Shown one piece after another: positions 37,732-43,722 of a DNA stretch of 45,913 bases (within the stretch, counting starts at the first letter, position 1; the number at the start of each line of letters is the position of its first letter). The position numbers and the translations under genes were made by a program. Under the pieces are notes generated by a model, which was not told where the DNA came from, did not search any database, and saw nothing but the letters and a program-made list of their open reading frames with translations. The DNA comes from Escherichia coli (GTDB lineage Bacteria; Pseudomonadota; Gammaproteobacteria; Enterobacterales; Enterobacteriaceae), in the NCBI RefSeq assembly GCF_003334785.1, contig NZ_QOWV01000023.1; one strand, 5' to 3'.

Positions 37732-38871
37732 ATGATCGATTATGAAGTATTGCGTTTTATCTGGTGGCTGCTGGTTGGCGTTCTGCTGATTGGTTTTGCA
37801 GTCACTGACGGTTTCGACATGGGGGTGGGCATGCTCACCCGTTTCCTCGGTCGTAACGACACCGAGCGTCGAATTATGATTAACTCCATTGCACCACACT
37901 GGGACGGTAACCAGGTTTGGCTGATCACCGCGGGCGGCGCACTCTTTGCTGCCTGGCCGATGGTCTATGCCGCTGCGTTCTCCGGCTTCTATGTGGCGAT
38001 GATCCTCGTGCTGGCGTCTTTGTTCTTCCGTCCGGTCGGTTTTGACTACCGCTCCAAGATTGAAGAAACCCGCTGGCGTAACATGTGGGACTGGGGCATC
38101 TTCATTGGTAGCTTCGTTCCGCCGCTGGTAATTGGTGTAGCGTTCGGTAACCTGTTGCAGGGCGTACCGTTCAACGTTGATGAATATCTGCGTCTGTACT
38201 ACACCGGTAACTTCTTCCAGTTGCTTAACCCGTTCGGCCTGCTGGCAGGCGTGGTGAGCGTAGGGATGATCATTACTCAGGGCGCAACCTATCTGCAAAT
38301 GCGTACCGTGGGCGAACTGCACCTGCGTACCCGTGCAACGGCTCAGGTGGCTGCGCTGGTGACACTGGTCTGTTTCGCACTGGCTGGCGTATGGGTGATG
38401 TACGGTATCGATGGTTATGTCGTGAAATCGACAATGGACCATTACGCAGCCTCTAACCCACTGAATAAAGAAGTGGTTCGTGAAGCTGGCGCATGGCTGG
38501 TTAACTTCAACAACACGCCAATTCTGTGGGCTATTCCGGCACTGGGTGTGGTTCTGCCGCTGCTGACCATCCTGACTGCACGTATGGATAAAGCCGCGTG
38601 GGCGTTTGTGTTCTCCTCCCTGACGCTGGCCTGCATCATCCTGACAGCCGGTATCGCAATGTTCCCGTTTGTGATGCCGTCCAGCACCATGATGAACGCA
38701 AGTCTGACAATGTGGGATGCAACTTCCAGCCAGCTGACGCTTAACGTCATGACCTGGGTTGCGGTGGTTCTGGTACCGATCATTCTGCTCTACACCGCCT
38801 GGTGTTACTGGAAAATGTTCGGTCGTATCACCAAAGAAGATATTGAACGTAACACCCACTCTCTGTACTAA
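37732..38871 (+). CDS. cydB: Cytochrome bd-I ubiquinol oxidase subunit II
   Basis: 379-aa ORF (MIDYEVLRFIWWLLVGVLLIGFAVTDGFDMG...). Confidence 0.97.
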   Translation: MIDYEVLRFIWWLLVGVLLIGFAVTDGFDMGVGMLTRFLGRNDTERRIMINSIAPHWDGNQVWLITAGGALFAAWPMVYAAAFSGFYVAMILVLASLFFRPVGFDYRSKIEETRWRNMWDWGIFIGSFVPPLVIGVAFGNLLQGVPFNVDEYLRLYYTGNFFQLLNPFGLLAGVVSVGMIITQGATYLQMRTVGELHLRTRATAQVAALVTLVCFALAGVWVMYGIDGYVVKSTMDHYAASNPLNKEVVREAGAWLVNFNNTPILWAIPALGVVLPLLTILTARMDKAAWAFVFSSLTLACIILTAGIAMFPFVMPSSTMMNASLTMWDATSSQLTLNVMTWVAVVLVPIILLYTAWCYWKMFGRITKEDIERNTHSLY

Positions 38872-39441: not shown

Positions 39442-40535
<1,094 letters not shown>

Positions 40536-40538
40536 GCC

Positions 40539-40967
40539 ATGGCCAGAGCGCGTGGACGAGGTCGTCGCGATCTCAAGTCCGAAATCAACATTGTACCGTT
40601 GCTGGACGTACTGCTGGTGCTGTTGCTGATCTTTATGGCGACAGCGCCCATCATCACCCAGAGCGTGGAGGTCGATCTGCCAGACGCTACTGAATCACAG
40701 GCGGTGAGCAGTAACGATAATCCGCCAGTGATTGTTGAAGTGTCTGGTATTGGTCAGTACACCGTGGTGGTTGAGAAAGATCGCCTGGAGCGTTTACCAC
40801 CAGAGCAGGTGGTGGCGGAAGTGTCCAGCCGTTTCAAGGCCAACCCGAAAACGGTCTTTCTGATCGGTGGCGCAAAAGATGTGCCTTACGATGAAATAAT
40901 TAAAGCACTGAACTTGTTACATAGTGCGGGTGTGAAATCGGTTGGTTTAATGACGCAGCCTATCTAA
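40539..40967 (+). CDS. tolR: Tol-Pal system protein TolR (MotB/ExbD family)
   Basis: 142-aa ORF (...NIVPLLDVLLVLLLIFM...). Confidence 0.97.
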   Translation: MARARGRGRRDLKSEINIVPLLDVLLVLLLIFMATAPIITQSVEVDLPDATESQAVSSNDNPPVIVEVSGIGQYTVVVEKDRLERLPPEQVVAEVSSRFKANPKTVFLIGGAKDVPYDEIIKALNLLHSAGVKSVGLMTQPI

Positions 40968-41031
40968 ACATCTGCGTTTCCCTTGCTTGAAAGAGAGCGG
41001 GTAACAGGCGAACAGTTTTTGGAAACCGAGA

Positions 41032-42297
41032 GTGTCAAAGGCAACCGAACAAAACGACAAGCTCAAGCGGGCGATAATTATTTCAGCAGTGCTGCATGTC
41101 ATCTTATTTGCGGCGCTGATCTGGAGTTCGTTCGATGAGAATATAGAAGCTTCAGCCGGAGGCGGCGGTGGTTCGTCCATCGACGCTGTCATGGTTGATT
41201 CAGGTGCGGTAGTTGAGCAGTACAAACGCATGCAAAGCCAGGAATCAAGCGCGAAGCGTTCTGATGAACAGCGCAAGATGAAGGAACAGCAGGCTGCTGA
41301 AGAACTGCGTGAGAAACAAGCGGCTGAACAGGAACGCCTGAAGCAACTTGAGAAAGAGCGGTTAGCGGCTCAGGAGCAGAAAAAGCAGGCTGAAGAAGCC
41401 GCAAAACAGGCCGAGTTAAAGCAGAAGCAAGCTGAAGAGGCGGCAGCGAAAGCGGCGGCAGATGCTAAAGCGAAGGCCGAAGCAGATGCTAAAGCTGCGG
41501 AAGAAGCAGCGAAGAAAGCGGCTGCAGACGCAAAGAAAAAAGCAGAAGCAGAAGCCGCCAAAGCCGCAGCCGAAGCGCAGAAAAAAGCCGAGGCAGCCGC
41601 TGCGGCACTGAAGAAGAAAGCGGAAGCGGCAGAAGCAGCTGCAGCTGAAGCAAGAAAGAAAGCGGCAACTGAAGCTGCTGAAAAAGCCAAAGCAGAAGCT
41701 GAGAAGAAAGCGGCTGCTGAAAAGGCTGCAGCTGATAAGAAAGCGGCAGCAGAGAAAGCTGCAGCCGACAAAAAAGCAGCAGAAAAAGCGGCTGCTGAAA
41801 AGGCAGCAGCTGATAAGAAAGCAGCGGCAGAAAAAGCCGCCGCAGACAAAAAAGCGGCAGCGGCAAAAGCTGCAGCTGAAAAAGCCGCTGCAGCAAAAGC
41901 GGCCGCAGAGGCAGATGATATTTTCGGTGAGCTAAGCTCTGGTAAGAATGCACCGAAAACGGGGGGAGGGGCGAAAGGGAACAATGCTTCGCCTGCCGGG
42001 AGTGGTAATACTAAAAACAATGGCGCATCAGGGGCCGATATCAATAACTATGCCGGGCAGATTAAATCTGCTATCGAAAGTAAGTTCTATGACGCATCGT
42101 CCTATGCAGGCAAAACCTGTACGCTGCGCATAAAACTGGCACCCGATGGTATGTTACTGGATATCAAACCTGAAGGTGGCGATCCCGCACTTTGTCAGGC
42201 TGCGTTGGCAGCAGCTAAACTTGCGAAGATCCCGAAACCACCAAGCCAGGCAGTATATGAAGTGTTCAAAAACGCGCCATTGGACTTCAAACCGTAA
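41032..42297 (+). CDS. tolA: Tol-Pal system protein TolA, with long Ala/Lys/Glu-rich helical domain II
   Basis: 421-aa ORF with GTG start; N-terminal TM anchor, repetitive (A/K/E)-rich middle, globular C-terminus. Confidence 0.95.
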   Translation: MSKATEQNDKLKRAIIISAVLHVILFAALIWSSFDENIEASAGGGGGSSIDAVMVDSGAVVEQYKRMQSQESSAKRSDEQRKMKEQQAAEELREKQAAEQERLKQLEKERLAAQEQKKQAEEAAKQAELKQKQAEEAAAKAAADAKAKAEADAKAAEEAAKKAAADAKKKAEAEAAKAAAEAQKKAEAAAAALKKKAEAAEAAAAEARKKAATEAAEKAKAEAEKKAAAEKAAADKKAAAEKAAADKKAAEKAAAEKAAADKKAAAEKAAADKKAAAAKAAAEKAAAAKAAAEADDIFGELSSGKNAPKTGGGAKGNNASPAGSGNTKNNGASGADINNYAGQIKSAIESKFYDASSYAGKTCTLRIKLAPDGMLLDIKPEGGDPALCQAALAAAKLAKIPKPPSQAVYEVFKNAPLDFKP

Positions 42298-42429
42298 TCG
42301 CGATGTTGACTGTTCGGACGGTCAACATCAGGCACCGGTTGCCACGGGGTTCTGGTAGTTTTGTGTATTTTAGTTTGTTAACATTCTGCTAAATTATCGT
42401 GGGCCATCGGTCCAGATAAGGGAGATATG

Positions 42430-43722
42430 ATGAAGCAGGCATTACGAGTAGCATTTGGTTTTCTCATACTGTGGGCATCAGTTCTGCATGCTGAAGTCCG
42501 CATTGTGATCGACAGCGGTGTAGATTCCGGTCGTCCTATTGGTGTTGTTCCTTTCCAGTGGGCGGGGCCTGGTGCGGCACCTGAAGATATTGGCGGCATC
42601 GTTGCTGCTGACTTGCGTAACAGCGGTAAATTTAATCCGTTAGATCGCGCTCGTCTGCCACAGCAGCCGGGTAGTGCGCAGGAAGTACAACCAGCTGCAT
42701 GGTCCGCACTGGGCATTGACGCTGTAGTTGTCGGTCAGGTCACTCCGAATCCGGATGGTTCTTACAATGTTGCTTATCAACTTGTTGACACTGGCGGCGC
42801 ACCGGGTACTGTACTTGCTCAGAACTCGTACAAAGTGAACAAGCAGTGGCTGCGTTATGCTGGTCATACCGCCAGTGATGAAGTGTTTGAAAAACTGACC
42901 GGCATTAAAGGTGCGTTCCGTACTCGTATTGCCTACGTTGTTCAGACCAACGGCGGTCAGTTCCCGTATGAACTGCGCGTATCTGACTATGACGGTTACA
43001 ACCAGTTTGTCGTTCACCGTTCACCGCAGCCGCTGATGTCTCCGGCGTGGTCACCAGACGGTTCTAAACTGGCTTATGTGACCTTCGAAAGCGGTCGTTC
43101 CGCGCTGGTTATTCAGACGCTGGCAAATGGCGCTGTACGTCAGGTGGCTTCATTCCCGCGTCACAACGGTGCACCTGCATTCTCGCCAGACGGCAGCAAA
43201 CTGGCATTCGCCTTGTCGAAAACCGGTAGTCTGAACCTGTACGTAATGGATTTGGCTTCTGGTCAGATCCGCCAGGTGACTGATGGTCGCAGTAACAATA
43301 CCGAACCGACCTGGTTCCCGGATAGCCAGAACCTGGCATTTACTTCTGACCAGGCCGGTCGTCCGCAGGTTTATAAAGTGAATATCAACGGCGGTGCGCC
43401 ACAACGTATTACCTGGGAAGGTTCGCAGAACCAGGATGCGGATGTCAGCAGCGACGGTAAATTTATGGTAATGGTCAGCTCCAATGGTGGGCAGCAGCAC
43501 ATTGCCAAACAAGATCTGGCAACGGGAGGCGTACAAGTTCTGTCGTCCACGTTCCTGGATGAAACGCCAAGTCTGGCACCTAACGGCACTATGGTAATCT
43601 ACAGCTCTTCTCAGGGGATGGGATCCGTGCTGAATTTGGTTTCTACAGATGGGCGTTTCAAAGCGCGTCTTCCGGCAACTGATGGACAGGTCAAATTCCC
43701 TGCCTGGTCGCCGTATCTGTGA
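42430..43722 (+). CDS. tolB: Tol-Pal system periplasmic beta-propeller protein TolB
   Basis: 430-aa product from [21 protein letters not shown] (signal peptide); ORF track begins one codon earlier. Confidence 0.97.

Follow-up and report, generated by a model that had tools for sequence, protein, structure and literature searches.

The analysed window is a stretch of 45,913 nucleotides of Escherichia coli (assembly GCF_003334785.1, contig NZ_QOWV01000023.1) and carries the K-12-type cluster ybgC-tolQRA-tolB-pal-cpoB. According to the ORFs of the window and the K-12 annotation, the gene order is ybgC-tolQ-tolR-tolA-tolB-pal-cpoB, with tolA between tolR and tolB. The 421-aa ORF on the plus strand is tolA, and it is 100% identical to tolA of K-12. 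Its product was recognized by the NCBIfam TolA equivalog NF007065 (554 bits, cutoff 213, E = 1.7e-166) and by TIGR02794 (308 bits, cutoff 59), and Pfam PF06519 (TolA C-terminal, domain III) was found at aa 325-419 with E = 2e-38. Solved structures matching TolA are 1tol, 1s62, 2x9a, 3qdp, and 9k49, with PDB 9k49_H matching over residues 1-421. The protein consists of the membrane anchor (domain I), the helical domain II, and the globular domain III. A Ser-His-Leu-Ser motif can be read from the translation in the N-terminal membrane helix, as S18, H22, L29, and S33 in IIISAVLHVILFAALIWSS; this motif and His22 were described in PMC10666116, and domain II was described there as a helical spacer. 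Domain II is the long alpha-helical, periplasm-spanning part of the Tol-Pal force transducer TolA. [quoted passage not shown] Gene and domain had been named in an earlier sequence-only reading of this DNA, and K-12 identity together with the NCBIfam, Pfam, and PDB matches confirms both.

Between aa 113 and 338, TolA contains 45% Ala, 20% Lys, and 12% Glu. The low-complexity part of domain II (Table 1) is encoded almost wholly by GCN, AAR, GAR, GAY, and CAR codons. The domain has the form of a Lys(1-2)-Ala(3-4)-Glu/Asp repeat, and its DNA is therefore composed almost wholly of GCN, AAR, GAR, and GAY codons. The motif AAGAAAGCGGCAGC has eight matches at up to two mismatches, all within 41512-41861, where 0.47 are expected, and GCTGCTGAAAAGGC has four, where 0.41 are expected; no shuffle reached eight and four, respectively. 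The recurrence of motifs noticed earlier in domain II is therefore far above chance. Tandem Repeats Finder (TRF) reported a 15-bp period with 13.3 copies at 41689-41900 and also higher-order periods of 33 and 78 bp. The imperfect tandem-repeat tract is composed of 14 units of 15 or 18 bp, each with Lys first (KAAAE, KAAAD, KKAAAE, and similar). The "13 TR" tract published for MG1655 lies within it. Among positions 26 codons apart that share an amino acid, the codon is identical at a rate of 0.60, compared with about 0.3-0.45 at other offsets, and the 78-bp duplication is the youngest repeat layer of the tract.

Table 1. Positions in the window of tolA, its repeat tract, and the open frames on the opposite strand.
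Feature	Position	Strand	Basis and remarks
tolA CDS	41032..42297	+	421 aa, GTG start; K-12 annotation "cell envelope integrity protein TolA"
Low-complexity Ala/Lys/Glu/Asp/Gln-rich part of domain II	41251..41922	+	about aa 74-297, boundaries approximate; translation and composition
Imperfect tandem-repeat tract	41689..41910	+	TRF period 15; repeat spacings 15 and 18; unit map
Higher-order 78-bp duplication in tract	41702..41860	+	2 copies, 88% identity, TRF score 255
Zone of all natural indels among 12 E. coli tolA alleles	41635..41871	+	K-12 aa 202-280; protein alignments
224-aa antisense ORF	41370..42044	-	TTG start; ORF listing; judged not a gene
154-aa antisense ORF	41489..41953	-	GTG start, Leu/Gln/Pro-rich; ORF listing; judged not a gene
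Third antisense frame, codon-for-codon opposite tolA	41419..41931	-	stop-free, 171 codons
Site of 48% sense drop	41967..42017 (approximate)	.	MG1655 776525 in 50-nt bins (PMC10349824)

Across the tract, none of the three antisense frames has a stop, and the open runs are 171, 173, and 225 codons long. Two of these runs hold the 154-aa and 224-aa ORFs; no qualifying start codon was found in the third. The positions first given for both ORFs are exact, and the reverse strand, which had been called nearly stop-free, is open in the third frame too. In the 224-aa ORF, third codon positions coincide with the third positions of tolA, and its product mirrors TolA, with Ala opposite Ala, Phe or Leu opposite Lys, and Ser opposite Glu/Asp. 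In the 154-aa ORF, it is the second codon positions that coincide with tolA third positions. About 130 nt at the right-hand side of the 224-aa ORF (41911-42044) lie outside the Ala/Lys/Glu repeat, where the ORF overlaps the Gly/Asn-rich linker and the first part of domain III. The stops bounding the 224-aa frame lie at the sense pairs GCT-CAG (A113-Q114) and AAC-TAT (N338-Y339), those of the 154-aa frame at GCT-AAA (A153-K154) and ACT-AAA (T327-K328), and those of the third frame at the sense Leu codons TTA (L129) and CTA (L301). All six are thus at a Leu, Tyr, or Gln codon or at a junction of NCT with a following A.

When all pairs of Ala, Lys, Glu, and Asp codons were enumerated, no antisense stop arose at offsets 0 and 2, and at offset 1 only GCT followed by A produced one. 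The triplets of the tract are accordingly unable to spell TAA, TAG, or TGA in two antisense frames and can do so in the remaining one only at a GCT-A junction. As a null, synonymous codons were permuted 2000 times with the TolA protein kept. The 225-codon run of the 224-aa frame compares with a permutation mean of 262, and the 171-codon run of the third frame with a mean of 184; in each case, 74% of shuffles gave a run at least as long as observed. For the 173-codon run of the 154-aa frame, the mean was 126, and 10% of shuffles equalled or exceeded it. A second null, with codons drawn from the usage of neighbouring genes, had the same result. With 225 and 173 codons inside the permutation distributions, the antisense ORFs are not longer than the TolA protein dictates. 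Openness of the antisense strand is an arithmetic consequence of the codon set, and the long frames are an automatic by-product of the Ala/Lys/Glu/Asp codons of TolA. The 224-aa and 154-aa ORFs are almost certainly just the open runs in which a TTG or GTG happens to occur.

Signals of a gene were sought in the ORFs themselves. No Shine-Dalgarno sequence precedes the antisense starts, which are TTG and GTG only; duplex energies are -1.7 kcal/mol for the 224-aa ORF and +0.7 for the 154-aa ORF, compared with -5.6 to -8.4 for tolQ, tolR, tolB, and pal. Their codon log-ratios, -0.22 and -0.08, respectively, are those of antisense sequence; tolA scores +0.31, and 27 other genes lie between +0.06 and +0.52. 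Neither NCBIfam nor PHROG gave a match for the antisense ORFs, and Rfam identified no family in 40500-42800, where only sub-threshold eukaryotic and viral families appeared as chance matches. In a collection of 15 billion proteins, the exact 224-aa protein is absent, and the 154-aa ORF was called as a gene only on three contigs, each of 1753 bp or less. The 154-aa ORF was also grouped with proteins labelled "primosomal protein DnaT, partial"; this was rejected as a clustering artefact, as the members are true DnaT fragments with no resemblance to it. On the minus strand of the tract, nine terminator-like hairpins were predicted, with hairpins at 41908-41888 among them, compared with 2.6 expected. 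A literature search for translation or antisense genes at tolA found nothing, and tolA is unmentioned in the text portion of the supplements of two surveys of antisense overlapping genes (10.1101/2020.11.18.388249, PMC9927249).

Polymorphism was compared in seven E. coli alleles of tolA. Of 47 variable sites, 43 are at third codon positions of tolA, and 40 are synonymous there. These 43 sites are second positions of the 154-aa frame, where they are almost always non-synonymous, and this pattern argues against selection on that frame. In the 224-aa frame, the same sites are third positions and uninformative on selection; as this ORF and tolA share third positions, tests of the dN/dS type are unable to tell selection on one frame from selection on the other. 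Both antisense ORFs are intact in all seven alleles, and their lengths track the repeat number.

For the comparison among species, tolA DNA was obtained by scanning genome contigs with a degenerate DNA pattern, and loci of partial TolA proteins were dropped as a DNA source, as they have contig ends or N gaps inside the repeat. Eighty-eight complete Enterobacterales tolA genes code for 343-519 aa, and their longest antisense open runs are 112-443, 67-307, and 86-374 codons in the three frames. Conservation was tested in the orthologues of E. coli aa 112-339 from 58 Enterobacterales species. The 224-aa frame is stop-free in four species and interrupted in 54, with 114 stops observed against 110.8 expected. 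The 154-aa frame is open in none of the 58, with 2-13 stops in each orthologous region and 270 stops in total against 337 expected from synonymous permutation (about 20% fewer, z = -4.8). Selection as the cause of this depletion was rejected. The stops are fewer because of a general shortage of GCT before A, which makes up 14.3% of Ala codons in that context in tolA orthologues and, equally, 14.2% in other, unrelated genes of the window; moreover, species and repeat units are non-independent, and no species has the 154-aa frame fully open. Enterobacter and Klebsiella have the TTG start of the 224-aa ORF at an identical position, and in Pseudescherichia it is displaced by one codon; the sense residues at this site, D/E-I-N/S, are themselves conserved. 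In the available part of Salmonella tolA, the frame-2 ORF is missing. Conservation of an antisense frame independent of tolA, which the sequence-only reading had named as one finding that would overturn it, was thus not found.

The antisense strand of tolA is not transcriptionally silent, because for E. coli as well as K. aerogenes an RNA-seq study from 2023 reported antisense RNA "in the middle of tolA" (PMC10349824). Coincident with this RNA, sense transcription falls by 48% in E. coli and by 39% (termination) in K. aerogenes. The E. coli site, MG1655 position 776525, was mapped to about 41992 of the window and is present in the BW25113 data set too; the diagnostic increase after rifampicin was not seen by the authors in E. 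coli (PMC10349824). A strict scan for sigma-70-like promoters on the minus strand of 41900-42450 found none, and a lenient scan gave three weak candidates. In a comparison of 83 species, none of these sites proved to be conserved, and the best position was common to eight. The mid-tolA RNA is antisense transcription and not evidence of translation.

Twelve in-frame tolA alleles were found in E. coli, coding for 389, 394, 404, 405, 414, 416, 419, 420, 421, 432, 434, and 436 aa, all intact. In this comparison of domain II across strains, which had been proposed as a check, all indels are confined to the zone given in Table 1, and the last repeat units (aa 281-297) have no indel in any of the 12. 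To estimate the share of the K-12 length, 5,426 ranked genomes were sampled at even intervals. That length was present in 27 of 39 whole-gene matches (40 rows sampled) and in 40 of 60 in a second sample (about 67-69%), and about one third of the sampled genomes differ from it. Alleles longer by 33 and 45 bp were each found in 4 of the 39 matches, and small variants of -3, -6, -21, and +39 bp, which are not simple sums of 15 and 18, occur as well. For MG1655, Zhou, Michiels and Aertsen (PLoS One 2012; PMC3477136) described 13 imperfect repeats in tolA, each 15 or 18 bp long, which lie in the C-terminal part of domain II and code for a Lys/Ala-rich segment. By a PCR-based survey of 234 isolates, they found 8-16 repeats, with 13 in 66%; spontaneous contraction was measured at 6.9e-5 and was RecA-dependent, the last repeats never took part in rearrangements, and copy number affected the deoxycholate, acid-plus-salt (low pH plus salt), and phage fd phenotypes (PMC3477136). 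The expectation that such internal repeats are prone to in-frame length variation is borne out by the 12 alleles and by that study alike. Length variation of the tract is real but was already published in 2012. As every unit is a multiple of 3, the reading frame of tolA survives the gain or loss of a unit. According to published work, units change mainly by RecA-dependent recombination between them, with mechanism, rate, and phenotypes taken from the literature; such a change makes the helical spacer longer or shorter while TolA is not destroyed, giving the natural length polymorphism. The codon arithmetic, the null models, the non-conservation of the antisense ORFs, and the in-frame polymorphism come from the present analysis.

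A genuine overlapping gene, translated from the mid-tolA antisense RNA, would have an Ala/Phe/Ser-rich or Leu/Gln/Pro-rich product, probably membrane-associated, akin to those proposed for E. coli O157:H7. Such a gene is very improbable, even though the ORFs are long, intact in all seven alleles with lengths following repeat number, near an antisense RNA seen in two genera, and, for the 154-aa ORF, called by gene finders on three short contigs, and the TTG position is shared or nearly shared by three other genera. Their lengths are no more than the TolA protein forces, the starts are TTG and GTG with no Shine-Dalgarno sequence, codon statistics are antisense-like, and the orthologous frames are broken in 54 of 58 and in all 58 species, respectively. 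In Salmonella, the available tolA sequence has no frame-2 ORF, promoter-like sites are not conserved, the terminator-like hairpins exceed expectation, and the text supplements of the two surveys do not include tolA. Another reading accepts that the ORFs are artefacts and is compatible with the main explanation; here the antisense transcript attenuates tolA by collision of RNA polymerases and thereby tunes tolQRA against tolB-pal-cpoB. This is rather improbable. The antisense RNA and the 48% drop in sense synthesis at about 41992, the same arrangement with 39% in K. aerogenes, and the recurrence of the site in BW25113 speak for it (PMC10349824), and the missing post-rifampicin increase in E. 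coli (PMC10349824) speaks against it. No strict minus-strand promoter was found either, and the best of the weak, unconserved candidates is shared by only 8 of 83 species. Two points of background also speak against it: antisense transcripts are common and pervasive, with many of them regarded as noise, and tolB-pal has its own internal promoter. That the RNA is a conserved functional element, either throttling read-through into the 3' end of tolA and tolB-pal-cpoB or acting as the message for a short peptide encoded at the 5' end of the 224-aa frame, is clearly less probable still; in the short-peptide version, the RNA would end at the minus-strand terminator-like hairpins of the tract.

The length variation itself might be suspected to be an assembly artefact of the repetitive tract and not real biology. 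The tract does break assemblies, as many entries are "TolA, partial", contig ends and runs of N lie inside it, and one "complete" genome has a scrambled tract sequence and two pseudogene fragments. However, the 12 length classes are in frame, intact, and recur across independent complete genomes, the K-12-length share of about 67-69% agrees with the PCR-based 66% of 234 isolates, and spontaneous contractions were measured experimentally (PMC3477136), so an artefact is hardly credible as the cause. The preferred explanation is that tolA carries an in-frame variable tandem array whose codons throw open shadow ORFs on the opposite strand, and its probability is estimated at about 93%. As had been supposed, the long antisense ORFs are almost certainly not genes but artefacts, with no ribosome-binding site, antisense-like codon statistics, no family, and no conservation, and they seem not to be translated.

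The locus shows by example that a long antisense ORF in a low-complexity gene should stay unannotated, and that open-frame length needs to be judged against a null that keeps the sense protein. The tolA tract is also an experimentally characterised hypervariable spacer that alters TolA helix length and hence bile-salt, acid/salt, and filamentous-phage phenotypes. It often breaks short-read assemblies, with "partial" or pseudogene annotations of tolA as a result, which bears on pan-genome and pseudogene counts.

Compared with known systems, a tolA repeat with shadow ORFs is ordinary and already known. The tract is that of PMC3477136, with the same gene, the 13-repeat allele in about two thirds, and the last repeats spared in both; there is no substantive difference, and what is added here is the check in 5,426 complete genomes and the variants of -3, -6, -21, and +39 bp. 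In Salmonella Enteritidis, the orthologous domain II tract is the typing locus SENTR1/SE-10, a VNTR with a 45-bp unit and 7.8 copies (PMC2430564); unit size and sequence differ from E. coli, and both strains shown in that paper have equal copy number. Other shadow ORFs are alike in that sense codons cannot form TTA, CTA, and TCA and in that their length fits synonymous reshuffling. The window itself has further antisense ORFs, of 426 aa opposite cydB, 206 aa opposite pal, and 190 aa opposite tolQ. The cause in tolA is an extreme four-amino-acid alphabet, and not high G+C or rare-codon avoidance, and this alphabet is why all three antisense frames are open at once. The antisense overlapping genes put forward for E. 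coli O157:H7 (pop/ompA, ano, asa, and others; PMC7103648, PMC5960689, PMC9927249) resemble the tolA case in a long ORF embedded antisense in an envelope-protein gene with an antisense transcript near. Those cases rest on Ribo-seq, promoter/terminator assays, and phenotypes, whereas the tolA ORFs are known from sequence, with neither a ribosome-binding site nor conservation, and tolA is missing from the searched part of the candidate lists. Domain II of TonB, with its Glu-Pro/Lys-Pro repeats, is likewise a low-complexity periplasmic spacer of variable length in a homologous force transducer (PMC10666116, PMC12204202), but it is a polyproline-II helix and that of TolA an alpha-helix, and its Pro codons (CCN) constrain the antisense strand differently.

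The antisense ORFs lie in the K-12-type Tol-Pal cluster of E. coli, the annotated K-12 neighbours being cydB, cydX, ybgE, ybgC, tolQ, tolR, tolA, tolB, pal, and cpoB. Each of the 5,426 complete E. coli genomes searched has a match to tolA, and the annotation there is always 'cell envelope integrity protein TolA'. The tolA product passes both curated TolA equivalog models of NCBIfam, its aa 325-419 match the Pfam TolA C-terminal domain, and the TolA chain in cryo-EM entry 9k49 agrees with it from end to end without a difference. Ala accounts for 45% of aa 113-338, the stretch beneath the ORFs, Lys for 20%, and Glu for 12%. Domain II is an extended alpha-helical spacer with the repeat pattern Lys1-2-Ala3-4-(Glu/Asp), and its structure and length set the efficiency of force transmission to the outer membrane (Williams-Jones et al., PNAS 2023, PMC10666116).

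Coordinates of tolA, its repeat tract, the antisense ORFs, and related features
Feature	Position	Strand	Remarks
tolA	41032-42297	+	421 aa, GTG start; 100% identical to K-12 tolA
Antisense ORF, 224 aa	41370-42044	-	TTG start
Antisense ORF, 154 aa	41489-41953	-	GTG start
Bounding stops, codon-for-codon frame	Leu129, Leu301		TTA, CTA
Bounding stops, 154-aa frame	Ala153-Lys154, Thr327-Lys328		GCT|AAA, ACT|AAA
Bounding stops, 224-aa frame	Ala113-Gln114, Asn338-Tyr339		GCT|CAG, AAC|TAT
Repeat tract	41689-41910	+	14 units of 15 or 18 bp, split at Lys codons
Indel zone, twelve alleles	41635-41871	+	K-12 aa 202-280; contains every insertion/deletion
Terminator-like hairpins with T runs	41547-41908	-	nine, 2.6 expected from shuffles
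Sense-transcription drop/antisense RNA site	~41967-42017		PMC10349824, mapped here
Antisense ORF, 426 aa	37621-38901	-	ATG start; spans all cydB (37732-38871, +) codon-for-codon
Antisense ORF, 190 aa	39924-40496	-	opposite tolQ
Antisense ORF, 206 aa	43691-44311	-	opposite pal
Assembly breaks in the tolA tract (loci from other genomes)	L008 2401-2500; L011 2416-2500; L009, L010 position 1; L137 ~1150-1460

The sequence-only reading had reported a 224-aa and a 154-aa ORF on a nearly stop-free reverse strand, and the ORF listing gives both at identical positions. None of the three antisense frames meets a stop within the tract (open runs of 171, 173, and 225 codons); the 171-codon frame has no start codon. 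An antisense stop appears only where the sense strand reads TTA, CTA, or TCA. When all pairs of Ala/Lys/Glu/Asp codons were enumerated, none of these triplets could arise in the codon-for-codon and 224-aa frames, and in the 154-aa frame a stop arose only at a GCT|A junction. The six stops bounding the open runs fall exactly where TolA departs from the Ala/Lys/Glu/Asp alphabet. The 224-aa product mirrors TolA, with GCN read as GCN (Ala), AAR as TTY/YTT (Phe/Leu), and GAR as TCN (Ser), and for this reason contains 100 Ala, 40 Ser, and 39 Phe. In 2000 permutations of synonymous codons within tolA, with the protein held constant, the longest antisense runs averaged 262, 184, and 126 codons versus the observed 225, 171, and 173, and the observed run was reached in 74%, 74%, and 10% of shuffles, respectively. 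A second null, with codons drawn from the usage of neighbouring genes, gave the same picture. The antisense strand is no more open than the TolA protein forces it to be.

As had been supposed, the ORFs are almost certainly not genes, but shadow ORFs produced by the composition of TolA domain II; the null run lengths, the start regions, the codon scores, and the lack of conservation all agree on this. No Shine-Dalgarno sequence precedes either start (duplex energies -1.7 kcal/mol for the 224-aa and +0.7 kcal/mol for the 154-aa ORF, compared with -5.6 to -8.4 kcal/mol for tolQ, tolR, tolB, and pal). A codon log-ratio, with 27 of the window's genes as its training set, is +0.31 for tolA (gene range +0.06 to +0.52), and -0.22 and -0.08 for the 224-aa and 154-aa ORFs, respectively, within the antisense-frame range of -1.01 to -0.04. 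Neither ORF matched NCBIfam, PHROG, or Rfam. Among about 15 billion predicted proteins the 224-aa sequence was not found, and gene calls of the 154-aa sequence were confined to three contigs, none longer than 1753 bp. Two E. coli surveys devoted to antisense overlapping genes do not mention tolA in their text supplements. The 154-aa ORF (41492-41953, minus strand) is filed in a 90%-identity cluster with DnaT fragments to which it has no similarity. A DnaT identity was rejected, as the named members are unrelated fragments of true DnaT; the grouping is a clustering artefact of the protein collection and could mislead automated naming.

Across species the antisense ORFs are not conserved. Comparison of seven E. 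coli alleles gave 47 variable sites, of which 43 occupy the third position of a tolA codon and 40 leave the TolA protein unchanged. In the 154-aa frame these 43 are second positions, so that nearly all changes alter its product; in the 224-aa frame they are third positions, and so uninformative on it. A degenerate search pattern for PKPPSQAVYE, a conserved motif, recovered 88 complete Enterobacterales tolA genes of 343-519 aa from representative genomes, and all 88 have long antisense open runs, of widely varying length (112-443, 67-307, and 86-374 codons per frame). The longest TolA, 519 aa in the Enterobacterales locus L103, has three antisense frames open for 267-443 codons, including a 423-aa ORF with ATG start, and is an extreme case of the same compositional effect. 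Over the orthologous counterpart of E. coli aa 112-339 in 58 species, the 224-aa frame is stop-free in only four, with 114 stops observed versus 110.8 expected by permutation. The 154-aa frame is stop-free in none (2-13 stops each), and its 270 stops are about 20% fewer than the 337 expected, a deficit that could be taken for protection of an antisense gene. GCT before A-initial codons, however, makes up 14.3% of Ala codons in tolA orthologues and 14.2% in unrelated genes of the window. Since GCT is equally scarce there, protection was rejected, and the deficit is consistent with ordinary, general avoidance of T|A codon junctions. Within the 88 tolA genes (loci L012-L131), GCT is about half as frequent before an A-initial codon as elsewhere (14.3% versus 25.0%).

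Other long antisense ORFs occur in the window, those opposite pal and tolQ in the same operon as tolA. Of the 45 Leu and 16 Ser codons in cydB, none is TTA, CTA, or TCA, the chance of which is 1.7e-4 with window-average codon usage and 0.046 with that of sdh/suc genes. The ORF opposite it is probably another shadow, arising from rare-codon avoidance.

An antisense RNA was reported in mid-tolA of E. coli exactly at a 48% fall in sense synthesis rate, and the same arrangement was reported for K. aerogenes, with 39% termination (PMC10349824). This is evidence for antisense transcription, not translation. The event table of that study places the drop at MG1655 776525 and the equivalent BW25113 position; by the K-12 gene map this is about nt 961 of tolA, window 41992 ± 25, within the Gly-rich linker immediately 3' to the repeat and between the two antisense start codons. 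A strict scan found no minus-strand promoter there, a lenient scan gave three weak candidates, and a promoter-like site at any one position was present in at most 8 of 83 species. The minus-strand hairpins are a by-product of GCNGCN...AAAAA sense sequence (GCNGC...TTTTT on the reverse strand). It may be speculated that an antisense transcript entering the tract from the right ends early at them.

Both motifs named in the sequence-only reading recur, in 8 and 4 copies (at most two mismatches), all within tolA; 0.47 and 0.41 were expected by chance and no shuffle reached these counts. Tandem Repeats Finder gave a 15-bp period with 13.3 copies (41689-41900) and higher-order periods of 33 bp and 78 bp, and a repeat search gave start-to-start spacings of 15 and 18 bp. 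The units encode KAEAE, KKAAAE, KAAAD, and similar. At most offsets, positions that share an amino acid also share its codon in a fraction of about 0.3-0.45, near random expectation, and the repeats are old at synonymous sites. The exception is the 26-codon (78-bp) offset, whose value of 0.60 suggests that this layer was duplicated more recently. The tract is also an assembly breakpoint: Enterobacter, Pseudescherichia, Salmonella, and Klebsiella assemblies have N runs or contig ends in it. In NZ_AP024560.1, a 'complete' E. coli genome, its sequence is scrambled and two tolA pseudogene fragments are present. 'TolA, partial' makes up the majority of top protein-search matches.

The suspected in-frame length variation was borne out by strain comparison. 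The K-12 gene length was found in 27 of 39 whole-gene matches (from 40 rows sampled in even steps down the ranking of the 5,426 genomes) and in 40 of 60 matches of a tract-only search. Eleven variant alleles were fetched, and the twelve length classes formed with K-12 (389, 394, 404, 405, 414, 416, 419, 420, 421, 432, 434, and 436 aa) are all in frame and intact. The changes are mostly sums of 15- and 18-bp units (-15, +33, +45, -48, -51, -81, and -96 bp), those of -3, -6, -21, and +39 bp being exceptions, and the last units before the linker are unaffected in every class. The tract is indeed a tandem repeat whose length varies in frame.

The observation of spurious ORFs behind a low-complexity repeat is real and was read correctly; nothing in it is new. 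The variability was published in 2012 by Zhou, Michiels and Aertsen (PLoS One, PMC3477136), who described 13 imperfect 15- or 18-bp repeats in the C-terminal portion of domain II, with 8-16 copies in 234 isolates and 13 copies in 66%. Alleles engineered with 2-39 copies altered deoxycholate tolerance, susceptibility to phage fd, and survival at low pH combined with high salt. Spontaneous contraction (6.9e-5) was RecA-dependent and higher in a uvrD mutant, and repeats 12 and 13 were uninvolved in any rearrangement. Both the share of about two-thirds and the immunity of the last repeats are reproduced in our genome survey, and in Salmonella Enteritidis the orthologous tolA tract is a listed VNTR typing locus.
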